Assembly: GCA_963833145.1 (NCBI GenBank)
Contig: CAWHWT010000006.1
Span: forward strand, 33,221-97,220
Source: an uncultured Acidimicrobiia bacterium
GTDB taxonomy: Bacteria > Actinomycetota > Acidimicrobiia > Acidimicrobiales > Ilumatobacteraceae
Length of the DNA stretch: 64,000 nucleotides
Reading direction: 5' to 3'
Position numbers and translations under genes: made by a program. Numbering within the stretch: the first letter of the stretch is position 1; every line of letters starts with the position of its first letter. Of this stretch, positions 1 through 39,440 are shown piece after piece. The notes under the pieces were generated by a model. The model was not told the DNA's origin and did not search any database. It saw only the letters and a program-made list of their open reading frames with translations.

Positions 1-1206
1 TCGGAGCAGCGGCTGCTGCTGCTCGGCGCCACGTTCACCCAGGAGTACGCGGTCGAAGCGACGTCTGTGTGCAATCCGAGCGCGGTCGCGGCCATCGACC
101 AGAGTGGTCTCGAACCGGGGGAGCTGCGCTTCGTGCTGAGTGTTCGTCAGATCGGCGAGGGCCACACCTCGTCGATCGGTTTTCGCCAGGGCGTGATCGG
201 GCCGGCCGGCGGTTTGTCGATCGAGGACCGAACACCGTTCTCGACCGCGGGCACGATCGAGGACGTCACGCTCGACGCCGAGCTGTTCCGAGATCTGACG
301 ACTGACGTCGACGCGGACTCCGTCCGCTGGGTCCTCGACCACCTCGGTTCGCACTTCACATCAGGCCGACTCCTCGAGCGCCTGCATCAGCTCGAGGCGC
401 AGCAGGACACTCGTCGCGATGTCCCCCAGACCGTGTCCAGGTTCGTCGAGCGGGCGTCACGGTGTTACGCCGTCAGCTTCCCGGAGTCGTCCCAGGTCGA
501 CGAGCGCGTCCTCACCCCGTCCGCCGCCGCCGAGTCGAATGGCCTCGAGGACGCCCGGTTCGTGCGCTTCGTCGACGACGACGCAACGATCACCTACTAC
601 GCGACCTACACCGCGTACGACGGATCGGCGATCGCCCAGCAGCTGCTGACCACGACGGACTTCGAGACCTTCACGTCCTCACCCATGGTGGGCGCCGCGG
701 CCGCCAACAAGGGCCTCGCGCTGTTCCCGCGTCGCATCGGAGGCGATCTCTACGCACTGTCCCGTCACGACGGCGCGAGGAACGCCGTCGCCAGGTCGAA
801 CGACGTGTGGCACTGGCCGGAGGCGGTGCCCCTCGCCGTGGCCGGCACCATGTGGAGCTCGGTCCAGGCCGGCAACTGTGGCTCGCCCATCGAGCTCGAC
901 GAGGGCTGGCTCGTCCTCACCCATGGCGTCGGCCCGATGCGCACGTACTCGATCGGTGCGCTGCTCCTCGACCTCGATGACCCGACCGTCGTCATCGGCC
1001 AGACCGAGCAGCCACTGATCGCTCCGCTGCCGAACGAACGGGACGGCTACGTACCCAACGTCGTCTACAGCTGTGGCGCGCTCCGCCACGACGACACGAT
1101 CCTCATCCCCTTCGGCATCGCCGACGCCCGGATCGGGTTCGCCACCATCACCACCGCCGACGTCCTCGCCGCGATGACCAACCGCGGAGCCGCCGCCCAC
1201 CCTTAG
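1..1206 (+). CDS. GH130-family glycoside phosphorylase/hydrolase-like protein, 5' end outside window
   Basis: Track ORF 67..1206. The same frame stays open back to nt 1 (SEQRLLLLGATFTQEYAVEA..). The C-terminal half shows GH130-like propeller motifs by eye (DARFVRFVDDD..YYATYTAYDG, NKGLALFPRRIGG, GSPIELDEGWLVLTHGVG, YSIGALLLDLDDP, YVPNVVYSCG). Memory-based, no search. Confidence 0.8.
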   Translation, partial: SEQRLLLLGATFTQEYAVEATSVCNPSAVAAIDQSGLEPGELRFVLSVRQIGEGHTSSIGFRQGVIGPAGGLSIEDRTPFSTAGTIEDVTLDAELFRDLTTDVDADSVRWVLDHLGSHFTSGRLLERLHQLEAQQDTRRDVPQTVSRFVERASRCYAVSFPESSQVDERVLTPSAAAESNGLEDARFVRFVDDDATITYYATYTAYDGSAIAQQLLTTTDFETFTSSPMVGAAAANKGLALFPRRIGGDLYALSRHDGARNAVARSNDVWHWPEAVPLAVAGTMWSSVQAGNCGSPIELDEGWLVLTHGVGPMRTYSIGALLLDLDDPTVVIGQTEQPLIAPLPNERDGYVPNVVYSCGALRHDDTILIPFGIADARIGFATITTADVLAAMTNRGAAAHP

Positions 1207-1235
1207 ACACACGTCCCCGACGAGAGGAGCAGCAG

Positions 1236-1346
1236 ATGGCCGATAAGTCGCCACGCCAACACCAATCGAAGAAGTCAGGCAAGTCCTTGAAGGAGAAGCG
1301 AGGAGAGAAGAAGGCGAAGCAGGCCAGCAAGCGAGCGGGGTCATGA
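1236..1346 (+). CDS. 36-aa Lys/Arg-rich micro-protein, copy A (MADKSPRQHQSKKSGKSLKEKRGEKKAKQASKRAGS)
   Basis: Below the 60-aa cut-off of the ORF track; found by reading. GAGGAG lies 6 nt upstream of ATG 1236. The stop TGA 1344-1346 overlaps ATG 1343 of the next ORF (ATGA). The paralogue at 20977..21087 differs only synonymously over codons 1-30. Confidence 0.65.
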   Translation: MADKSPRQHQSKKSGKSLKEKRGEKKAKQASKRAGS

Positions 1347-1624
1347 CCGTGCAGCCGTCGGTCGACGAGCCTGAAGCCGATGACCAGCTGGTGGCGATGC
1401 TGCGTACGATCGGCGCCGGCGACCCCATCGGCGGGCAGCTTGACAGCGCGACGCTCGCCCGGCGGCTCGGTTGGCCGGCCGCGAGGACCGCGGCCGCGCT
1501 CGGTGCCGCCAAGGGCCGCCTGCTGATCTGGGGCATCCGCGTCGGAGGCACGCCCGCGCCCTGCTTCGAGGAGATCGAACTCACCGTGCAGGGTCGCCGC
1601 CTTCTCACCGCCGCCGACAGCTGA
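1343..1624 (+). CDS. Small (93 aa) conserved protein, possible winged-helix fold, copy A
   Basis: Track ORF 1343..1624. It is translationally coupled to the micro-protein. About three quarters of residues are identical by eye to ORF 21084..21374 (LDSAxLARRLGWxAARTAAxLGxAK..LLIWGIRVGGxPAPxFEEIELTVQGRRLL). The fold guess is inference only. Confidence 0.65.
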   Translation: MTVQPSVDEPEADDQLVAMLRTIGAGDPIGGQLDSATLARRLGWPAARTAAALGAAKGRLLIWGIRVGGTPAPCFEEIELTVQGRRLLTAADS

Positions 1625-1642
1625 GATCGGACCCCGCCGACT

Positions 1643-1669
1643 CGCCGCCGAGGTCACGGCCCGGCGGCG
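1643..1669. terminator. GC-rich hairpin between convergent genes (candidate bidirectional terminator)
   Basis: CGCCGCCG (1643-1650) and CGGCGGCG (1662-1669) are perfect complements with an 11-nt loop. The hairpin sits between stop 1622-1624 (+) and stop 1670-1672 (-). No U-tract. Confidence 0.35.
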
Positions 1670-3721
1670 TCAGGAGCTGCGCACGACGGCGAACCCACCC
1701 GCGGGGACCCTGACGACCACGTCCTCGGCAGGCGCCGAAGTGCGACGCACCAGGCGGCCCGTCTCGTCGTAGGTCTCCACGTGGGCAGTCGAGCCCACCG
1801 GCAGACTCATCTCGACCCGCTCGGTGTGGCGGGCGAAGCTGCGGAGCAGGGCGGTGGCGTTCGAGTCGTTGACGAGCACGACGTGTTCGATCTCGGGCTG
1901 CACGAGCAGCGCATCGACGACGCTGTCGCGTCGGCTTCCCCGGACGACCACCGTTTTCACGTCGTTGACCGACTTCGGGAGCGTCTCGACCGCCAGCAGA
2001 CCGGGCGCCGGTGAGTCGCCCTGCCGCCCGACACGTGAGTGCCTGAGGACGCCCGCCAACCGGCGGGGTGTCGTCCACGTCGTCGTTCCCGCGGACGGGT
2101 CGAGTAGCACGACCGGCATCAGCAGGTTCCGTCCGGCCGCGAGGCCACCGACGTCGATCGTCAACTTGCCACCCGGCGAAAGGAGGACACCGGCACCACC
2201 ACTCCACAGGCTCTCGCCGGTCCAATCCTCGGGATCGTAGACGTCGGCTCCGTCTGGCCCGAACTCGCCCGACTCGGCTTCCACCAGCGTCCAGGTCCGA
2301 CGATCTCTGACGTCGGCGACCTGGGCGAGATCGGCGATGTCGCGGTTGCCGTCGAGGATGAGCATGGCGAGCAGCCCGTGGATCGTCGACTCGGCACCGG
2401 AGTTGCGGTTCACCACGCCGTCCCCGGCGACGCCGTCGTACGTCCGGCCGGTGGCAGGGTCGTACATCGCCTCTCCGGCCGGGTTGTTGCCGAAGAACCA
2501 GGCCGCGGCGATGCCGGCGACGTGGCGGAGGCCCGGTCGATTGCCGGCCTCGGCCGCCGCCAGCAGCGACTCCACACGGGAGTGGGCGCCGTAGGCGATC
2601 TGGACGCGGTCGGTTGGAGAGGGCAGCCACCCGTTCTCGGGCCCGGCCGCGATGAGCAGATGCGTGGTGAAGGCGGCGGCGTCCGACAGGGCAGCGCGGC
2701 GCATGGCGCTGTCTCCGGTGACCTCGTACGCCTGGGCCAATCCGGCCGGCGCGAGACCGCCCCATGCGTGCCAGACCGCTTGGGAGAGTCCCCACGGGAG
2801 CACAGCACCGAACGGCCAGTCGCGTGCGTCGCCGGATCGCATCGCCGCCACCCCGGCACCGAGCTTCTGCAGCACGCGCTGCGCCCGACGATCGTCGGTG
2901 GCCGCCACGTACGGGGCCAGTCCGAGGAGCGCCTCACCCGTAGCGTCGGCGCCGTCCACGATGAGCCACGCCGGTACGGCGACACCGTCGATGTCGAGCC
3001 ACTCGCGATAGCGAACGAGGACCTGACGTTCGACCGCCCCGAGCGCGAGATCGAGGCGGTCACGGAGGAAGCGGGCGAACGCCGGGTCGCGGTGGCGAAA
3101 GGCTGGGTAGGCCTCGCCGAGCGCCCAGATCGTCCGCGCCAGCCAGTACGACGGTCCGCTGTCGGATGGGTCGGGCAGCTCGACCGGATCGGCGCTCGGG
3201 TTCAGACTGCCGTCGGGCTGCATCCACAACACCACGTTGCCGGCGTTGGGCCCACTGATGGTCTGCAGGTAGGTCAGCCCCCGCAGCAACTGGTAGGCCA
3301 ACTGCCGGCTGGACTCTGCACCTGTCGCTCGCCAGTGGCGCACGTAGACCACGGCCGCTCGCGAGATGTCATCGGCGTTGAAGGCGCCTTGTCCCCAGGT
3401 GTCGGTGGCCGGGTCGTAGACCCCGCCGCCGATCCGTCGATAGCTTCCGTCGGCCTGGCGGTCGGCGTACGTCCACAGCACGCCGATCTCGGGCTCCGAG
3501 CCCAGCCGGTAGGTGGTGTGACCGACCTGGGGAGGAGGGGAGACCTCAGCGCCCAGCCAGTCGAGGTGGGCAAGGTTGGTCAGCCGGACCGCTTGGGCGG
3601 TCTGGTCTCGGCGGGTCGTCAGCCCGGTGGCCGGTGCCACCAGACCGGACGAGGCGATGAGGGCGGCGACGGCGCCAACGGTGAACCGCCTGAGCCGCCG
3701 AGGTGCTGAGGTGCGGATCAT
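1670..3721 (-). CDS. Secreted large protein with twin-arginine-type signal, probably glycan-active; family not identified
   Basis: 683-aa ORF. The N-terminus is MIRTSAPRRLRRFTVGAVAALIASSG (RR motif plus hydrophobic stretch). It is the last gene of the minus-strand sugar operon, 58 nt after the GH130 gene. The enzyme-class guess rests on context only. Confidence 0.7.
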   Translation of the reverse strand: MIRTSAPRRLRRFTVGAVAALIASSGLVAPATGLTTRRDQTAQAVRLTNLAHLDWLGAEVSPPPQVGHTTYRLGSEPEIGVLWTYADRQADGSYRRIGGGVYDPATDTWGQGAFNADDISRAAVVYVRHWRATGAESSRQLAYQLLRGLTYLQTISGPNAGNVVLWMQPDGSLNPSADPVELPDPSDSGPSYWLARTIWALGEAYPAFRHRDPAFARFLRDRLDLALGAVERQVLVRYREWLDIDGVAVPAWLIVDGADATGEALLGLAPYVAATDDRRAQRVLQKLGAGVAAMRSGDARDWPFGAVLPWGLSQAVWHAWGGLAPAGLAQAYEVTGDSAMRRAALSDAAAFTTHLLIAAGPENGWLPSPTDRVQIAYGAHSRVESLLAAAEAGNRPGLRHVAGIAAAWFFGNNPAGEAMYDPATGRTYDGVAGDGVVNRNSGAESTIHGLLAMLILDGNRDIADLAQVADVRDRRTWTLVEAESGEFGPDGADVYDPEDWTGESLWSGGAGVLLSPGGKLTIDVGGLAAGRNLLMPVVLLDPSAGTTTWTTPRRLAGVLRHSRVGRQGDSPAPGLLAVETLPKSVNDVKTVVVRGSRRDSVVDALLVQPEIEHVVLVNDSNATALLRSFARHTERVEMSLPVGSTAHVETYDETGRLVRRTSAPAEDVVVRVPAGGFAVVRSS

Positions 3722-3779
3722 GGGATCCCCCTGTCTGCAGGTATCAGTGTCCGGATCGAGTGCAATGTGCGGCCCGTGC

Positions 3780-4859
3780 TCACGTGCGCGTCCGCTCGAG
3801 GAGCGCCGCCCCGATGCTGCTGTCGGCCATGCCGTAGAACACGAAGTCGCGGCCGTCGATCGTCGCCATGGCGGTCGGGAAGACGACGTTGGGCACCGTG
3901 CCGACCCGTTCGTCGACGGTCGCGGGTTCGAGGAGCGGCTCCGCGGTGCGGGCGATGACGCGGGACGGATCGCCCGCGTCGAGCAACATCGCCCCGGCGC
4001 GGTAGACGAGCGAGCCCTGCTGCGACGGGTCGAAGCCGGGCACGACCTCGCCTTCGACTCCGTGGTGGATGAGGAGCCAGCCTTCTGGGACCCGCACGGG
4101 TGGCGGACCGGCGCCGATCTTGGCGCTCTCGTACGGGCGCTCGGGCAGGGCGACGCAGCGGTGGGCGTGGACGAGCGTCAGCGCGCGGATGTCGGCCTCG
4201 ACGTGTTCGGCCGGGACGTACGAGATCCAGATGCCGGGCCGGTCGTCGGTGAGACCGGCGGGCAGCCGCGTCGCGGCCGGCTCGAGTCCTGACATGGTCT
4301 GGTCCCACATCGGGCGGTGCAACATGGCGTAGCTCGGTACGCCGTCGGGGCCGGGGATCGGCTCCGGGAAGATCACGGCATCTTTGTTGGGGTACAGGTT
4401 GAGGTCGATGTCCATCCCGGGCTGGTAGGCGAACAGCACGGGGCCGAGTCGCTCCCACGCCTCGAGATCGCGAGAGACCGCCAGCGCGATGCGTGGACCG
4501 AGGGGGCCGAACGCGACATACGTCATCAGGTGAGCGTCGAGCCGCTCGACGAAGGTCACTCGGGGGTCTTCGACCCCGCCATGATTGGCGCCGCGTTCCC
4601 ATCCTTCGTCGGGCGCCAACACGACACCACGGCGATGGACCCGGGTCGGGACGCCGTCGTCGGTCACGACCTCGGCCAGGCCGATCCGGGACACATTGCC
4701 GGCGGCGACCAGCCGGGGCAAGAGGTGCAGCCGGCCGTCAGGCGTGTGCCCGGTCGCGGGATTGAGGACCCCCTCGACCTCCCACGGCTCGCCGGGCTCG
4801 GGAGACATGACGGTGCCGACGCGCGTCAAGCGGTACGGGATGTCGCCGTCGTCCGTCAC
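3780..4859 (-). CDS. GH130-family mannoside phosphorylase/beta-mannosidase-like protein
   Basis: 359-aa ORF with a GTG start 3 nt after the permease stop. Motifs seen: PWEVEGVLNPA, GGVEDPRVTF, MTYVAFGP, GWLLIHHGV, YRAGAMLLDAGDP, VPNVVFPT. Confidence 0.85.
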   Translation of the reverse strand: MTDDGDIPYRLTRVGTVMSPEPGEPWEVEGVLNPATGHTPDGRLHLLPRLVAAGNVSRIGLAEVVTDDGVPTRVHRRGVVLAPDEGWERGANHGGVEDPRVTFVERLDAHLMTYVAFGPLGPRIALAVSRDLEAWERLGPVLFAYQPGMDIDLNLYPNKDAVIFPEPIPGPDGVPSYAMLHRPMWDQTMSGLEPAATRLPAGLTDDRPGIWISYVPAEHVEADIRALTLVHAHRCVALPERPYESAKIGAGPPPVRVPEGWLLIHHGVEGEVVPGFDPSQQGSLVYRAGAMLLDAGDPSRVIARTAEPLLEPATVDERVGTVPNVVFPTAMATIDGRDFVFYGMADSSIGAALLERTRT

Positions 4860-4862
4860 TCG

Positions 4863-5762
4863 TCAACCCTTGACGGCGGAGCCGATGTCGCTCGTCCTGA
4901 AATGGCGCTGGAAGACGACGAACAGCACGATCACCGGTGCCGCCAACACACACGCCCCGGCGAGGATGGCTCCGAACGGGTTGGCCGCCCGGGATGCGAG
5001 GTTGGAGATGTAGTTGGCCAGCGAGACGGCGAGCGGCTGCATGTCGGCGTCCTTGGTGACGAGGAACGGCCACAGGAACTCGTTCCAGGGGCCGATGAAG
5101 GTGACCAGGGTGACCGTGAGGATCACCGGGCGGGCCAGTGGGATGGCGATGCGCCGGAGGATGGCGAACTCGCCGGCGCCGTCGATGCGGGCCGCCTCGA
5201 ACAGCTCGACGGGCAACTGGAGGAAGAACTGGCGGAAGATGAACACTGCGACCGCGCTGATGGCGAACGGCAGGATCATCCCCAAGTAGGTGTCACCGAG
5301 CCCGTAGTCCCGGACCAGCAGCACGTACAGCGGGATGATCAACAGCTGGAACGGGATGGTCTGCACGAGCAGCACGGTGGCGAACGCGACGCCGCGGCCC
5401 CGGTAGTGCAGGACGGCCAGCGAGTACCCGGCCAGCAGCCCGAAGAACAGGGTGCTGAAGACGACCGCGGCGGTGAAGATCCCCGAGTTGACCAACGATT
5501 GGAGCAGACCGATGCTTCCGTTGATGTCGCTGTAGTTCTTGGTGGTGAGGTTGGCCGGGTCCGGGAAGGCGCCGCCCACGCTGGTGTCGGGCTCCTCCTG
5601 GAGCGACCCGACGAGCATGTAATAGAACGGGAAGAGGAAAACGAAGGCGCCGATCGTGAGCGCCACCAGCCGCACGACCGAACGTTGGTGGCGAGGCTGT
5701 CGTGGTGCTGGTCTGGCTGTGGCGGCCGGGTCCACCACCACAGCGTCGATGGTGTCTGTCAC
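4863..5762 (-). CDS. Carbohydrate ABC transporter permease (MalG-like)
   Basis: 299-aa multi-TM ORF with an EAA-type loop (FEAARIDGAGEFAILRRIAIP). The GTG start overlaps the upstream permease stop (GTGA). Confidence 0.9.
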   Translation of the reverse strand: MTDTIDAVVVDPAATARPAPRQPRHQRSVVRLVALTIGAFVFLFPFYYMLVGSLQEEPDTSVGGAFPDPANLTTKNYSDINGSIGLLQSLVNSGIFTAAVVFSTLFFGLLAGYSLAVLHYRGRGVAFATVLLVQTIPFQLLIIPLYVLLVRDYGLGDTYLGMILPFAISAVAVFIFRQFFLQLPVELFEAARIDGAGEFAILRRIAIPLARPVILTVTLVTFIGPWNEFLWPFLVTKDADMQPLAVSLANYISNLASRAANPFGAILAGACVLAAPVIVLFVVFQRHFRTSDIGSAVKG

Positions 5763-19104: not shown

Positions 19105-19162
19105 AGTGTCGGCGCCACCAGCGACCACGGGGCACGGGGCGGCCGGCGACGGGAGGTCGAAC

Positions 19163-19891
19163 ATGACACGAGAGACGGTCTTAGCCCGCACGATGGTCGA
19201 GCTCGCCGACAACCTGGTCGACGACTTCGACGTCGTCGAACTGCTCACCACGCTGGCCGATCGCTGCGTCGAGGTGCTCGACGTCGATGCCGCCGGCATC
19301 ATGCTCGTGGGACCCAACGGTGAACTCCACCTGATGGCCTCCTCGAGCGAGACGATGCGGCTCGTCGAGCTGTTCGAACTGCAATCCCGGCAGGGACCCT
19401 GCCAGGACTGTTTCCGCACCGGCCGACCGGTCGTCAACCGGGACCTCACCAGCGACGACCTGCGCTGGCCCCGCTTCGCCGCCGTCGCGGTCAGCGAAGG
19501 ATTCCGCGCCGCCGACGCGCTCCCGATGCGGCTGCGCACCACCACCATCGGCGCCCTCAATCTGTTCCGCTCCACCACCGGCTCCCTCAACGACGACGAC
19601 GTCACCGCCGCCCAAGCGCTCGCCGACATCGCCACCATCGCGATCGTCCAACACCGCGCCGCGATCGACGCCCAAGTCCTCAACCAACAGCTCACCGAGG
19701 CGCTCACCAGCCGCATCGTCATCGAACAAGCCAAAGGAATGGTCGGCGAACGACGCCACCTGCCCATGGACGAGGCCTTCACCGTGCTCCGCCACCACGC
19801 CCGCCGCAACAACCTGCGCCTCGCCGACGTCGCCCGCCGCATCGTCGACAGCACCATCGACCCCGACACCCTCGACCTTCCACCCCACTGA
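19163..19891 (+). CDS. GAF + ANTAR domain RNA-binding regulator (paralogue 2)
   Basis: ATG 19163 lies 6 nt after GGGAGG. The GAF-like part contains AAGIMLVGPNGEL, SRQGPCQDC, LPMRLRTTTIGALNLF. The ANTAR motif is RIVIEQAKGMVGERRHLPMDEAFTVLRHHARRNNLRLADVA. Confidence 0.85.
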   Translation: MTRETVLARTMVELADNLVDDFDVVELLTTLADRCVEVLDVDAAGIMLVGPNGELHLMASSSETMRLVELFELQSRQGPCQDCFRTGRPVVNRDLTSDDLRWPRFAAVAVSEGFRAADALPMRLRTTTIGALNLFRSTTGSLNDDDVTAAQALADIATIAIVQHRAAIDAQVLNQQLTEALTSRIVIEQAKGMVGERRHLPMDEAFTVLRHHARRNNLRLADVARRIVDSTIDPDTLDLPPH

Positions 19892-20165: not shown

Positions 20166-20882
20166 ATGTCGACAGCGATCATCACCGAGGGATCCGCCGA
20201 CCCGTCGTGGCGGCTTTCTCCTTCGAAGCTGTCCGTGGTGGGCGCGGTGACGAGGCGTCTCGTGCCCTACTTGATCGAGGCGACACTCATCCCCACCCTG
20301 CTGTTCTACGGCTTCTTGATCACCTTGGACTTGTGGTGGGGGATCGTCGCCGCGCTGGGGTGGTGCTACGCCGCCCTGGCTCGTCGGCTCATCGGCCGCC
20401 GGCCGATCCCCGGTCTGTTGGTGCTGGGTTGTCTCGGAATCACCGTGCGGACGGTCATCTATTTGTTGAGCGGGAACGCGTTCGTGTACTTCGCGCAACC
20501 GATCCTGCGCACGCTCGCCACTGCGGCGACGTTCGGCATCTCGGTCGTGATCGGGCGGCCGCTCATCGCCCGGTTCGCCAGCGACTTCTGCCCGCTCACC
20601 GCCGACGTTCGGGAGAGGCCGGCGATCGAGCGTCTCTTTCGGCGGCTCACCTATCTGTGGGCCGGGGTCAACGCAACTGCCGCGGCAGTCAGCCTGACGC
20701 TCCTCTTGACGGTGCCGACGGCCGTGTTCGTCGGCACGGCGACGGTCGCCGCTTGGGCCATCACCTGTACCGGAGTCATCCTCACGGTGTCGGACTCGGT
20801 TCGCACCGCTCGCTCCGAAGGACTCGCGACAGCGATCGAACCGAACGGCTCCTTACGCGCGTACGTCGCCCAACGGGCCTGA
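20166..20882 (+). CDS. Multi-pass membrane protein, function unknown
   Basis: 238 aa with about six hydrophobic segments. AGGAGA precedes ATG 20166. Confidence 0.7.
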   Translation: MSTAIITEGSADPSWRLSPSKLSVVGAVTRRLVPYLIEATLIPTLLFYGFLITLDLWWGIVAALGWCYAALARRLIGRRPIPGLLVLGCLGITVRTVIYLLSGNAFVYFAQPILRTLATAATFGISVVIGRPLIARFASDFCPLTADVRERPAIERLFRRLTYLWAGVNATAAAVSLTLLLTVPTAVFVGTATVAAWAITCTGVILTVSDSVRTARSEGLATAIEPNGSLRAYVAQRA

Positions 20883-20976
20883 CCTCGGCCGCGGCGATGG
20901 GACCGTCGGCGCGCCGCGACGCGAATCGCTCGTTTCCTCTCGACACAAGGTTTACCGATCGGATGAGGAGCAGCAG

Positions 20977-21087
20977 ATGGCCGACAAGTCGCCACGCCAG
21001 CACCAGTCGAAGAAGTCGGGCAAGAGCCTGAAGGAAAAGCGGGGGGAGAAGAAGGCGAAGCAGGCCAAGAAGCGAGGGGTGTTGTGA
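20977..21087 (+). CDS. 36-aa Lys/Arg-rich micro-protein, copy B (MADKSPRQHQSKKSGKSLKEKRGEKKAKQAKKRGVL)
   Basis: Not in the ORF track (too short). It has the same GAGGAGCAGCAG-ATG leader as copy A. The stop TGA 21085-21087 overlaps GTG 21084 of the next ORF (GTGA). Confidence 0.65.
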   Translation: MADKSPRQHQSKKSGKSLKEKRGEKKAKQAKKRGVL

Positions 21088-21374
21088 CGGGCGATCGAAC
21101 GGTCGTCGATTCCGAGGCCGATGACCAGCTCGTGATGTTGCGCACGATCGGTGACGGCGACTCCGCTGCCGGCCAGCTCGACAGCGCGGCACTCGCGCGG
21201 CGCCTCGGCTGGACAGCCGCCCGGACGGCGGCAGTGCTCGGTACCGCCAAGAGCAGCCTGCTCATCTGGGGCATCCGCGTTGGCGGCGCGCCCGCGCCGG
21301 TCTTCGAGGAGATCGAGTTGACCGTGCAAGGCCGCCGCCTCCTCACCGCCACCGACGGCCGACATCGCCGGTAG
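21084..21374 (+). CDS. Small (96 aa) conserved protein, possible winged-helix fold, copy B
   Basis: Track ORF 21084..21374, a paralogue of 1343..1624. Confidence 0.65.
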   Translation: MTGDRTVVDSEADDQLVMLRTIGDGDSAAGQLDSAALARRLGWTAARTAAVLGTAKSSLLIWGIRVGGAPAPVFEEIELTVQGRRLLTATDGRHRR

Positions 21375-21598
21375 AGTGCTTGAACACTCTTGGACGAGTC
21401 GCCTCGCTTGGGCAGGACGGCCGAAGTTGCTGTCGCCCCGTGCAGGCTCGACGCCTCTTCCGAGCCGCCAGGTCGAGGAGGCCGGATGCCTATTCCTTGG
21501 TTCCGACTTTTTGTCGGGATCGATCGAGGGCGGCTGCAGTGCGGAAGGATCCCGTCTCCTCGCCTGCTTGTGCACAACGAGCTAGTCGACACCTGGCG

Positions 21599-22738
21599 AT
21601 GACGGGCCGCCGCCGGTTGCGCTACGGCATCGTCAGCGCATGGCAGGCCGAAGACACGGCCCCGGCGCGCTTCGCCACCGCCCTTGCCGATTCGCTGGGC
21701 GGCCGGAACGACATCGCGCGAATCGCGTCCTCGACGCCCGCACCGCTCGATGCGCATCCGAGCCTCTCGATGGCGTCGCCCCGTTCCCTCGCAACGATGG
21801 CGAGCGAGTTGAACGGGTGCGACCTCGCGATCATCCACCACGGCATCGACGAGCTCTCGAGCGGTGACGGTGCGACAGTCCTCAGCTCCCGCCTGATCGA
21901 AGTCATCGACCTCGTGCACGTTCCCACGATCGTCGTGCTCCACCACGTGCCGGCCGACCCGACCGACGATCAACGCAGCATGCTCGCTCACGCGGGTCGG
22001 TCGGCCGACGCTGTCGTCGTCACCACCGCGCCGGCCGGTATCAGGTTGACCAGCGTCTACGACGTCGACCCGACCGCGCTGTGGCTGATTCGATGCAATA
22101 CGCGACAACGTCAAGGCGTCTCGCCGGAATCGCGACGAGCAGTCGTGGTCACGTGGGGGGTCGTCGGTCCGGGTAGCGGCATCGAGTGGATGATCGATGC
22201 GATGGAGCACTTGTCGGCCCTCGACGTTCGATACGTGGTCGCGGGTCCGTCACCGGACGACATGGCTGACGACGAAGCTGAGAGCTACCGCGACACGCTC
22301 GTCCGGCGATGCTGGAGTCACCGCGTCCCCGCGTACGTCTCGCTCGGGGACGACGCCGACCAGACAGCGATGGGGGAGACGTTGCGCAGCGCTGTCGCTG
22401 TGGTCATGCCACAGGACACCGCCGTGAACTACATGGACGGCCTGCTCGAGGAACTCGTTGCGGCGGAGGTCCCCATCGTGGCCACCGAGGATGCAGTGGT
22501 GTCGGCGGGTCTGCCCGCTGACGCCGTGGTGCTCGTTCCGCCGCAGGATCCCAGTGCGCTCGCCGACGCCGTTCTGCGCCTCATGATCGATCCGCATCTC
22601 GCCGAGTCGATCGTGCACCGTGCGGCGCGCATGTCGCAACCGGCCACGCCGGGAGGTATGGCGGGTCGCTTCGCTCGCGTGACCCATGCTGCGATGCGTT
22701 CGTCCTTGACCACCAGTCCGATATCCGCGTCCAGTTGA
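21599..22738 (+). CDS. GT4-like (GT-B fold) glycosyltransferase, divergent
   Basis: The track ORF starts at 21380. I prefer ATG 21599 (MTGRRRLRYGIVSAW). The C-terminal half has a GT-B-like layout (VVVTWGVVGPGSGIEW.., VPIVATED.., LVPPQDPSALADAVLRL), but the usual EX7E motif is not obvious. Confidence 0.65.
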   Translation: MTGRRRLRYGIVSAWQAEDTAPARFATALADSLGGRNDIARIASSTPAPLDAHPSLSMASPRSLATMASELNGCDLAIIHHGIDELSSGDGATVLSSRLIEVIDLVHVPTIVVLHHVPADPTDDQRSMLAHAGRSADAVVVTTAPAGIRLTSVYDVDPTALWLIRCNTRQRQGVSPESRRAVVVTWGVVGPGSGIEWMIDAMEHLSALDVRYVVAGPSPDDMADDEAESYRDTLVRRCWSHRVPAYVSLGDDADQTAMGETLRSAVAVVMPQDTAVNYMDGLLEELVAAEVPIVATEDAVVSAGLPADAVVLVPPQDPSALADAVLRLMIDPHLAESIVHRAARMSQPATPGGMAGRFARVTHAAMRSSLTTSPISASS

Positions 22739-22756: not shown

Positions 22757-23038
22757 ATGATGAAGAAAAAGCCACGGAAGGTGACGCCGGACCCGTATCG
22801 GACGACGGCCTCACCGGACGACCTCAACCCAACCGATCGGATCGCGTTCGACATCATGGCGGGGCGTCCAGACCTCCTGCCTTCGATCGAGCGGATCATG
22901 ACGGCTGGGCTCGACAGTGATGCCACGTATCGCGCGATCAGCCTGTTCCGTGAGTCTCTGGAGAGCGGCAGCGATCCGAACCGCGACCCGCGAGTCGCGA
23001 TCGTCAATGGCACGTTGCCTCCAACCGCGCTCGGGTGA
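22757..23038 (+). CDS. Hypothetical small protein
   Basis: 93-aa ORF 18 nt after the GT4-like stop. GAGGAG lies 9 nt upstream. GC3 bias is moderate and I recognised no motif. Confidence 0.45.
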   Translation: MMKKKPRKVTPDPYRTTASPDDLNPTDRIAFDIMAGRPDLLPSIERIMTAGLDSDATYRAISLFRESLESGSDPNRDPRVAIVNGTLPPTALG

Positions 23039-23151: not shown

Positions 23152-23173
23152 AGAAAGACAAAGTTGGTTCCTT

Positions 23174-23368
23174 GTGCAAGGCAAAGTGAAGTTCTTCGAT
23201 CAGAACCGTGGATTCGGTTTCATCTCCCGGGAGGACGGCGAGGACGTGTTCGTGCACGTGTCCAATCTCCAGTCCGCCGGCGCCTCGCTGGCGGAGGGTC
23301 AGACGGTTGAGTTCGAGGTCGGCCCCGGTCGCAAGAGCGAGGAAGCCAAGAACGTCCGGGCCGTCTGA
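23174..23368 (+). CDS. cspA: Cold-shock protein (CspA family)
   Basis: VQGKVKFFDQNRGFGFISREDGEDVFVHVSNL.. carries the RNP1/RNP2-like motifs KGFGFI and VFVH. The product is 64 aa from GTG 23174. Confidence 0.9.
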   Translation: MQGKVKFFDQNRGFGFISREDGEDVFVHVSNLQSAGASLAEGQTVEFEVGPGRKSEEAKNVRAV

Positions 23369-38799: not shown

Positions 38800-39027
38800 A
38801 TGAGGGTGACGGAGAAGGGCCAGGTCACGATTCCCAAACCCCTGCGTGACGCGCTCGGGATCGGGGCCGGAACGGAGGTCGAGTTCGAGCGAAACGACGA
38901 TGCGATCATCGTGCGCAAGGTGAACGGCGGACATTCCCGCGGTCGCCGGCTCGCCGAGCGGCTGCGCGGTCACGGTGACGTCAGGATGACGACGGACGAG
39001 ATCATGGCGCTCACCCGAGGGCAGTGA
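38800..39027 (+). CDS. vapB: AbrB/SpoVT-type antitoxin (VapB-like)
   Basis: MRVTEKGQVTIPKPLRDALGIGAGTEVEF is the classic swapped-hairpin motif. The stop overlaps the start of the PIN gene. Confidence 0.85.
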   Translation: MRVTEKGQVTIPKPLRDALGIGAGTEVEFERNDDAIIVRKVNGGHSRGRRLAERLRGHGDVRMTTDEIMALTRGQ

Positions 39028-39440
39028 GGGTGGCCCACGGCACGCTCGTCGACAGCAACGTATTGCTCGACATCCTCACCGACGACGAGACATGGCGCGA
39101 GTGGTCGACGGCAGCGCTCGCCGCCGCGGCTGACGCCGGCCCGCTGTTCATCAATCCGATCATCTACGCCGAGGTTTCGGTGCGCTTCTCGCTGATCGAG
39201 GAGCTCGACGAGGTCTTGCCTCGTCAGGTCTATCGACGGCTGCCGCTGCCCTGGGAGGCCGCGTTCCTGGCGGACAAGGCGTTCCTCCGTTACCGCCGAC
39301 GCGGCGGGAGGCGTACGTCCACCCTGCCCGACTTCTTCGTCGGTGCCCACGCGGCTGTCGAGGAGATCGTCCTCCTCACCCGTGACGCCACCCGGTACCG
39401 GACCTACTTCCCCACGCTTCACCTGATCGCTCCTGGATAG
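39024..39440 (+). CDS. vapC: PIN-domain toxin (VapC-like)
   Basis: TLVDSNVLLDIL (first acidic residue), IIYAEVS, and DFFVGAHAAVEEIVLLTRD fit a PIN-domain layout. There is a 4-nt overlap with vapB. Confidence 0.85.
   Translation: MRVAHGTLVDSNVLLDILTDDETWREWSTAALAAAADAGPLFINPIIYAEVSVRFSLIEELDEVLPRQVYRRLPLPWEAAFLADKAFLRYRRRGGRRTSTLPDFFVGAHAAVEEIVLLTRDATRYRTYFPTLHLIAPG

Follow-up and report, generated by a model that had tools for sequence, protein, structure and literature searches.

A conserved family of small basic peptides in the Actinomycetota and its duplicated gene cassette in an uncultured Ilumatobacteraceae bacterium

Two copies of a small peptide gene

The DNA analysed here, which we call the window, is a stretch of 64,000 nucleotides (nt) from contig CAWHWT010000006.1 of an uncultured member of the Ilumatobacteraceae (Actinomycetota; Acidimicrobiia), with a GC content of 69%. 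It holds two copies, and no more, of a gene for a lysine-rich peptide of 36 amino acids (aa), and each copy is followed by an overlapping gene for a larger partner protein (Table 1). A previous reading of this DNA, made from the letters alone and called the sequence-only reading below, argued that the peptide is translated and kept by purifying selection. Both open reading frames (ORFs) are genuine protein-coding genes under strong purifying selection. They belong to a large actinobacterial family that annotation pipelines call but that has never been curated or studied, a 'known unknown'.

Copy 1 encodes MADKSPRQHQSKKSGKSLKEKRGEKKAKQASKRAGS and copy 2 encodes MADKSPRQHQSKKSGKSLKEKRGEKKAKQAKKRGVL. 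A recount agrees with the one made before: 13 of the 36 residues are K or R (10 K and 3 R) and there is no Cys. Codons 3, 8, 10, 14, 17, 18, 20, 22 and 23, nine of the first 30, differ between the copies and each difference is synonymous, which is exactly the list that the sequence-only reading had given. Amino-acid changes are limited to the last six codons, as it had also said, and they fall at codons 31, 34, 35 and 36. These last codons are variable because they also hold the start codon of the partner gene and a GGGG run that resembles a Shine-Dalgarno (SD) sequence. When 10 random substitutions were placed in the first 90 nt, the peptide was preserved in 0 of 200,000 simulations. By the Nei-Gojobori method codons 1-30 give a synonymous divergence (dS) of 0.65 and a non-synonymous divergence (dN) of 0.028, and the sole 'non-synonymous' path among them is the switch between the serine codons TCC and AGC. 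The two partner genes give a dS of 0.57 (0.574) and a dN of 0.14 (0.142). A dS of about 0.6 with low dN in both genes points to an old duplication of the whole cassette, with both genes retained since.

The same SD leader, GAGGAGCAGCAG, stands before both ATG codons as had been claimed, with GAGGAG six nt upstream of the ATG in each copy, and it recurs in seven close relatives (L001-L007). L-numbers (L001-L142) are labels for loci collected from genomes and metagenomes, and P-numbers are public proteins. Upstream of GAGGAGCAGCAG the two copies show no similarity. The stop codons do overlap the start of the next ORF in both copies, as ATGA in the first and GTGA in the second.

The reading frame

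An all-synonymous difference between two copies does not by itself fix the reading frame. In high-GC DNA one antisense frame has wobble positions that coincide with those of the sense frame, and here that frame is also nearly unchanged between copy 1 and copy 2 (...ACFAFFSPRFSF.LPDFFDWCWRGDLSA), so the pairwise pattern cannot separate the two. Long minus-strand ORFs contain it at both places (Table 1). One could argue from this that the peptide ORF is no gene at all, and that the conservation is due to the antisense ORF or to an RNA or DNA element.

The argument fails at the family level. We compared 85 distinct DNA copies of genomic and metagenomic origin. Not one of them has a stop within the sense frame, whose ATG, SD and length are conserved. 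The wobble-matched antisense frame carries stops in 34 of the 85 and the remaining four frames in 34 to 67 of them (40-79% overall), so each non-sense frame is broken in at least 34 copies. Per-position entropy is 0.47, 0.26 and 1.00 at codon positions 1, 2 and 3 (68 distinct ungapped copies). S5, P6, G15 and R22 are invariant residues, yet each is written by all four synonymous codons. Across the family loci the ATG is conserved and lies 6-8 nt downstream of a GGAG-type SD. Rfam gave zero matches. We find it scarcely conceivable that this is not a gene.

The sequence-only reading had proposed estimating dN/dS on a collection of copies, and the median pairwise omega is 0.15 (codons 2-28, 2010 usable pairs). 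Together with the entropy and the open sense frame in every copy, this bears out purifying selection on a translated peptide. Stops in relatives and substitutions spread evenly over the codon positions, which that reading had named as contrary patterns, are both absent from the collected copies.

Family size, distribution and annotation

The core of the family can be written M[AS]DKSPRQxxSKKSGK[ST][LI]KEKRx[ED]KKxK, and both window peptides fit it at every invariant or near-invariant column over residues 1-28. A length of 32 to 47 aa is expected of a member, and both window peptides fall within it. The 36-aa form is that of the Acidimicrobiia. In the class Actinomycetes the peptide has 43-45 aa: the first ~28 residues are unchanged, and a variable linker joins them to a basic KK[RH] terminus. 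With sequences grouped at 90% identity, profile searches (E-values down to 1e-19) gave 2996 clusters when run for the 36-aa form and 5123 for the 44-aa form; at 50% identity there are 398 family representatives. Over residues 1-28 the Acidimicrobiia and the Mycobacteriales are ~75-85% identical.

When each GTDB species was represented by a single genome, a scan found 78 loci, every one of them in the Actinomycetota. They include Ilumatobacteraceae, other Acidimicrobiia, Nocardioidaceae, Phycicoccus, Rhodococcus jostii, Nocardia, Pseudonocardia, Arthrobacter, Microbacteriaceae and Nanopelagicales, and the loci nearest to the window come from metagenome-assembled genomes (MAGs) of Ilumatobacteraceae and Acidimicrobiia. 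The family as a whole spans the Acidimicrobiia, Mycobacteriales, Nocardioidaceae, Micrococcales and other Actinomycetota. Members named by NCBI come from Mycolicibacterium thermoresistibile, M. houstonense, Mycobacterium gordonae, Rhodococcus and Serinicoccus. We found no copies on plasmids or phages by tblastn or on viral contigs, with the caution that the low-complexity filter of BLAST may mask weak matches.

The sequence-only reading called the ORF unannotatable and thought that most gene callers would miss it. That holds for copy 1 but not for the family, since thousands of members have been called as 'hypothetical protein' in JGI, ENA and NCBI. The exact product of copy 2 is among them in all three. 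The exact product of copy 1 is not in a collection of 15 billion proteins, although its partner, from the same 188-kb contig, is there, so gene calling on this genome picked up copy 2 and passed over copy 1. The copies share their SD and start, and small-ORF annotation was in this respect inconsistent within one genome.

The curated resources are silent. Neither the 36-aa nor the 44-aa form has a match above threshold in Pfam or NCBIfam, and neither peptide nor partner has one in PHROGs or PADLOC. A profile searched against 177,635 PDB sequences gave 0 matches at E<=10. A full-text literature search with the core motif strings found no paper containing them, the supplements of a mycobacterial small-protein paper (PMC4633059) held 0 matches, and a keyword search of the literature found RTOF and bS22 as the sole analogues. 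The existence of the family is already recorded in databases; its function is what we infer below.

The partner and the coupled cassette

The AlphaFold2 model of the partner (79-sequence alignment; predicted local distance difference test, pLDDT, 86.8) has the topology helix-helix-helix-beta-beta-helix. Its best PDB matches in Foldseek are MepR, PcaV, MexR and repressors of the MarR/ArsR type, with TM scores of 0.6-0.66 for the best and 0.57-0.68 over the matches as a whole, and E ~1e-3. On the strength of this model and these matches the partner is a minimal winged-helix (wHTH) protein. It has no profile-level membership in MarR or HTH_20, with sub-threshold scores to DUF7343 (E = 0.17) and wHTH-PRTase_assc (E = 0.28) only, and at 93 aa it is without the dimerisation helices of MarR. 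In the lineage of the window the peptide gene is the first cistron of a translationally coupled cassette with this protein, duplicated within 20 kb.

How general is this coupling? The sequence-only reading had suggested a profile search for the ORF and its partner of ~95 aa, and the outcome is split. The peptide is conserved phylum-wide, but its coupling to the partner, with the identical 4-nt overlap, is confined to a narrow clade of Acidimicrobiia (L001-L007 and L123) and elsewhere the peptide is mostly stand-alone. The partner falls into 92 clusters, none of them below 57% identity, and the peptide family is ~50 times larger. Another operon of the Acidimicrobiia (L009, L086-89, L134, L139, L140) runs from a leader through the peptide gene, an 83-aa ORF resembling GvpG/SHOCT (again with an ATGA overlap) and a homologue of the wHTH partner to a cold-shock-domain (CSD) gene and a 93-aa ORF. 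In L114 an 80-aa ORF overlaps the peptide stop by the same four nt.

These facts bear on the idea that the peptide is an obligate subunit of the partner. The basic peptide would bind the acidic N-terminus or the DNA-binding face of the wHTH protein and add a histone-like lysine tail, and the two chains would make one DNA-binding regulator. Translational coupling would give co-expression at a fixed ratio, the partner is net acidic where the peptide carries a charge of about +10, the two genes were duplicated together and both remained under purifying selection, and a partner homologue reappears in the operon with the 83-aa ORF. The difficulty is that the far larger peptide family spans classes without the partner, and that no peptide gene precedes P0374 and P0363, two divergent homologues of the partner. 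Gene fusions do not help the idea either. Four database proteins (P0307, P0324, P0337 and P0154) look like fusions of peptide and partner, but they switch frame from one to the other and are not in-frame; indel errors made in long-read MAG assembly, or pseudogenes, are the probable explanation. No canonical slippery heptamer for programmed frameshifting was noticed there, though no dedicated search was made. N-terminal extensions of other partner homologues were compared with the peptide and rejected as relatives (hhalign probability <1%). The partner frame is open across the peptide gene of copy 2, and copy 1 has an early TAA there. We think a role as obligate subunit is improbable.

It might also be argued that the cassette is a toxin-antitoxin system, with a small toxin or antimicrobial-like peptide and the wHTH partner as its antitoxin or immunity regulator. 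Two small overlapping genes, one of them DNA-binding, do resemble the layout of a type II system. This is where the resemblance ends: PADLOC, PHROG, Pfam and NCBIfam match neither protein, the peptide has no hydrophobic or amphipathic segment that could act on membranes, and the family is conserved vertically across the phylum, mostly stand-alone, and was not found in the plasmid, phage and viral collections. We give this explanation very little credence.

Gene organisation in the class Actinomycetes

Outside the narrow clade the peptide gene has no fixed company. Its immediate neighbours are mostly unconserved across genera (78 genome loci; the largest neighbour cluster has 4 of 151), apart from local synteny and the minor recurrences of GT4/GH130 and CSD genes described below. 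The gene that follows shares the strand of the peptide gene in 39 loci and faces the other way in 37, and in only 7 of these 76 does it start within 40 nt of the peptide stop. Compared with 60-nt stretches drawn at random from their own locus, the 60 nt that follow the stop fold more stably by over 5 kcal/mol in 27 of 77 loci.

The gene also has a leader of its own in this class. The motif GGCGTAnnnT lies ~48 nt upstream of the ATG, with its T, A and T invariant and no -35 element, and all 28 occurrences of GGCGTA[CA][TG]GT in 856 kb of Actinomycetes loci are at the leader position. A 6-bp hairpin, GGAGCC-N5-GGCUUCC, follows and then the SD. The arms of this hairpin covary between genera, and its central pairs may be AU, GC or GU. 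Pairing holds in 89% of cells, and there are 27 double-sided changes against 12.3 in shuffled alignments, where 0 of 500 were as high. Slid controls collapse. The 5' arm resembles an SD, and the alternative helix between the 3' arm and the SD is 70% paired, which is not above shuffles, and has no covariation support. Neither window copy has this leader, nor do the other loci of the Acidimicrobiia type. To judge from this layout, the peptide gene of the class Actinomycetes looks like an independent transcription unit that is mostly monocistronic.

This organisation speaks against a cis-acting role. In such a role the peptide would do its work on the very ribosome that translates it; its ORF would be a leader ORF, either a sensor or arrest peptide rich in Lys codons or simply a well-translated 'starter' cistron, and termination and reinitiation would set the translation of the gene downstream. 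SpeFL is an arrest peptide of this kind that senses an amino acid. The mycobacterial polycysteine leaderless small ORFs are another example of regulation by a short ORF (bioRxiv 10.1101/834739). Like such leader peptides and upstream ORFs, the peptide is short, rich in one amino acid, and in some loci directly upstream of a gene that it overlaps. The -4 overlaps in both window copies speak for this, as does the same overlap with unrelated genes (the 83-aa GvpG/SHOCT-like ORF, the 80-aa ORF of L114, and the wHTH gene in L123).

A further point in its favour comes from a family of enzymes. In L055, L062, L069 and L102-104 the peptide gene is paired with a gene of the AlaDh_PNT family, and the pair is kept though the flanks differ. 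Opine and saccharopine dehydrogenases that use lysine or ornithine belong to the AlaDh_PNT superfamily, and enzymes of this sort would suit a leader with 10-13 Lys codons. A link of this pair to lysine or ornithine metabolism is possible, as far as gene order can tell. The enzyme (~385-400 aa) starts 5-6 nt after the peptide ORF or 17 nt inside it, and gene callers sometimes fuse the two (P0205, P0246, P0258).

Against a leader ORF, roughly every second downstream gene is encoded on the other strand, few begin close to the peptide stop, and many loci have a stable hairpin directly after the stop. D3, S5, P6, R7, G15, L/I18, E20 and R22 are conserved across classes, unlike the residues of classical attenuator leaders, and the C-terminus, the part that an arrest peptide would place in the peptidyl-transferase centre, is where the 36-aa form is conserved least. 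The helix that might sequester the SD in the Actinomycetes leader is unsupported beyond composition. The strong SD, the mostly monocistronic genes, the class-spanning conservation and the lack of a fixed downstream gene all set the family apart from leader peptides and upstream ORFs. We regard a cis-acting leader as unlikely, though we take it seriously.

A second leader and the neighbourhood in the Acidimicrobiia

The Acidimicrobiia have a different conserved leader, which in the window begins at GGTAGAGT (21370..21377) and overlaps the TAG stop of the second partner gene. Its consensus is a -10-like GGTAnnnT, then CTCTTGGRNGAGTCGCCTCGCTTGGG..., a predicted long hairpin, AGGAGC and the start codon. 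A metagenome scan with the 5' half of the leader found 38 loci. The alignment comes from a search that fixed this 5' half, and the hairpin is an RNAalifold prediction. What follows 100-600 nt downstream is a homologue of the GT4-type glycosyltransferase of the window (31-36% identical) in 15 loci and a peptide-family gene in 11. In L114 and L135 the peptide gene begins precisely where the glycosyltransferase would have started, and a partner homologue follows the leader in L132 and in the separately fetched L094.

The leader has no match in Rfam, the cspA thermoregulator (RF01766) included. It is like that thermoregulator in being long, conserved and upstream of an operon with a CSD gene, and it is unlike it in that its sequence resembles no Rfam model and its hairpin is a prediction. 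We propose this leader of ~100 nt as a candidate for a new cis-regulatory RNA or operator of the Acidimicrobiia.

Two kinds of genes recur near the peptide. The first are cold-shock genes. The CSD gene of the window was recognised by tblastn with a CspA query, and PF00313 matches its orthologue in L001-3 and L086-89. A CSD gene lies within 3 kb of the peptide gene in 5 of the 78 genome loci and in the window, as a raw count; L010, L022, L034 and L052 have a CSD gene near the peptide. In Nocardia, one of these five loci, a csp gene downstream of the peptide gave a sub-threshold match to the cspA thermoregulator of Rfam, 46.4 bits against a gathering score of 78. The second are sugar genes. Homologues of the GH130 gene adjoin the peptide gene in L032, L033, L066 and L096-98 (Mycolicibacterium houstonense). 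A cluster of GT4, a 339-aa protein with no family and GH130 (~490 aa, resembling beta-mannoside phosphorylase) recurs beside the peptide gene, and its carriers are M. houstonense, two Actinomycetes MAGs, an Ilumatobacteraceae MAG and copy 1 of the window. Homologues of the 93-aa ORF downstream of cassette 2 are found in L001-4, L009, L086-89, L134, L139 and L140.

Upstream of cassette 2 lie a GAF-ANTAR regulator (19106..19891, +) and a DUF3159 membrane protein (20166..20882, +), and the gene order DUF3159, peptide, partner, glycosyltransferase is the same in L001-L007. An inverted repeat after the first partner gene is a possible bidirectional terminator on sequence grounds, and scans for consensus intrinsic terminators and consensus sigma-70 promoters around both window copies found nothing. 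Farther away two overlapping small ORFs (38800..39027 and 39024..39440, both +) have the look of a VapBC-type toxin-antitoxin pair in the ORF listing; the N-terminus of the first, MRVTEKGQVTIPKPLRDALGI, is typical of AbrB/SpoVT-like antitoxins and the second is a 138-aa PIN-like ORF.

Table 1. Positions of the peptide genes, their partners, leaders and neighbours (window numbering unless a locus is named)
Feature	Position	Strand	Remarks
Peptide gene copy 1, 36 aa, net charge ~+10	1236..1346	+	ATG at 1236, TGA ending at 1346
Peptide gene copy 2, 36 aa	20977..21087	+	ATG at 20977, TGA ending at 21087
SD leader of copy 1, GAGGAGCAGCAG	1224..1235	+	read directly
SD leader of copy 2, GAGGAGCAGCAG	20965..20976	+	read directly
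Partner gene copy 1, 93 aa	1343..1624	+	ATG overlaps peptide stop (ATGA)
Partner gene copy 2, 96 aa	21084..21374	+	GTG overlaps peptide stop (GTGA); 76% identical to copy 1
Long ORFs holding the wobble-matched antisense frame	1148..1657; 20952..21575	-	frame nearly unchanged between the copies
GH130-family gene	67..1206	+	runs off window start; Pfam PF04041, E = 3.5e-29; ends 30 nt before copy 1
GT4-339aa-GH130 cluster	1..1206 (+) and 3780..4859 (-); L096-98 888..4734; L032, L033, L066		upstream of peptide in L032, L033, L066
Inverted repeat CGCCGCCG-N11-CGGCGGCG	1643..1669		between partner 1 and convergent gene 1670..3721 (-)
Conserved non-coding leader, Acidimicrobiia	21370..21491	+	-10-like GGTAGAGT, then CTCTTGGACGAGTCGCCTCGCTTGGG..., long imperfect hairpin (predicted), SD
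Other sites of that leader	L001 4394..4515; L009 ~2812..2933; L086 ~4812..4930; L094 ~2205..2322; L105-L142
Leader, class Actinomycetes	L011-L085, L097, about -55 to -1 from ATG (e.g. L032 2946..3000)		conserved block
GT4-type glycosyltransferase	21599..22738	+	Pfam PF13692/PF00534; downstream of cassette 2
93-aa ORF travelling with the cassette	22757..23038	+	no Pfam, PHROG or PADLOC match
CSD gene	23171..23368	+	48% identity to the CspA query

Proposed function

We believe that the peptide acts in trans. In most loci it is the only product of its transcription unit, which has a leader to itself, and the genes around it change. What is conserved is its sequence and not just its composition, yet only coil and one charged helix are predicted for it. 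The sequence-only reading had suggested nucleic-acid or ribosome binding from the composition, which we consider a reasonable guess. The AlphaFold2 model (pLDDT 73) has a coiled N-terminus and a single helix at residues 18-33, so the product would be a polycation that is largely unstructured or single-helical. Conservation at the level of sequence in a +10 polycation with so little predicted fold suggests that it docks sequence-specifically on a polyanionic surface that is itself highly conserved. The ribosome or its rRNA would be the most likely target, and another RNA, DNA or RNA polymerase less likely ones. Expression would fall within a stress regulon, possibly a cold-shock-like one, alongside the GT4/GH130 sugar module and the CSD proteins; the shared leader and the recurrence of the CSD and GT4/GH130 genes are suggestive of this.

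We hold the general form of this proposal, a trans-acting polycation on a conserved target of nucleic-acid type within a stress regulon, to be somewhat more probable than all else together. The choice of the ribosome in particular is tentative, and is made by analogy with bS22, bL37 and RTOF. Still more specific is the picture of a phylum-wide microprotein that binds the ribosome or RNA, either as a factor for hibernation or adaptation to cold or as a ribosomal protein present under some conditions only, under the control of two undescribed 5' leaders; we would call it possible but doubtful.

Several points weigh against the proposal. No relative turned up at E<=10 in solved structures, mycobacterial ribosomes included, although it is not established that the species with solved ribosomes carry the gene. 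In the loci examined the gene does not adjoin translation genes or sit in a ribosomal-protein operon. The idea of a stress regulon draws on gene neighbourhood, a raw CSD count and the shared leader. Finally, the overlap of stop and start with such varied genes (wHTH, the 83-aa and 80-aa ORFs, and AlaDh_PNT-like enzymes) could indicate a role in cis.

Comparison with known systems

The closest analogue in kind is RTOF (DUF5302). It is described as specific to actinobacteria, tiny (~60 aa), charged and mostly unstructured with one short helix; it was long 'hypothetical', is linked to stress, and carries a C-terminal FRRKSG and is located in the ribosomal exit tunnel (bioRxiv 10.1101/2024.11.25.625233). 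The peptide shares with it the restriction to one phylum, the size, the charge, the single short helix, the 'hypothetical' status and the proposed link to stress. Despite this the peptide has no FRRKSG, nor any F at all, has no match to DUF5302 or any other Pfam model at E<=10, and is only 36-45 aa long. The conserved end is the N-terminus in the peptide family and the C-terminus in RTOF. Any ribosomal link of the peptide would be by analogy.

Small ribosomal proteins offer a second comparison. bS22 and bL37 of mycobacteria and Sra of E. coli are 24-45 aa, rich in Lys and Arg, often overlooked by annotation, and conserved without a fold. The peptide is like them in being tiny, basic and conserved in sequence with little fold (for bS22 see PMC10081302). 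It is unlike these proteins in that no PDB chain contains a relative of it and its gene lies outside ribosomal-protein operons.

The peptide lacks at least one tested defining feature of each system considered here: RTOF, the known small ribosomal proteins, attenuator leaders and toxin-antitoxin systems. By analogy it would belong to the kind of small basic actinobacterial proteins that are ribosome-associated, as a family new to curation.

Significance

The Actinomycetota include Mycobacterium, Rhodococcus, Nocardia and Streptomyces-like lineages. The family stands out among them by its high conservation between the Acidimicrobiia and the Mycobacteriales and its great numbers in soil metagenomes, and Pfam, NCBIfam, PDB and the searchable literature have nothing on it. 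Its carriers include the culturable and genetically tractable Rhodococcus jostii, Mycolicibacterium houstonense, M. thermoresistibile and Arthrobacter, so the binding target of the peptide is directly testable. The conserved leaders, the GT4/GH130 genes and the cold-shock link point to concrete conditions under which it could be studied. Several tiny basic 'hypotheticals' of this phylum, bS22, bL37 and RTOF, were recently recognised as parts of the ribosome or as factors of its hibernation, with effects on how antibiotics act, and we believe this family may be another of their kind.

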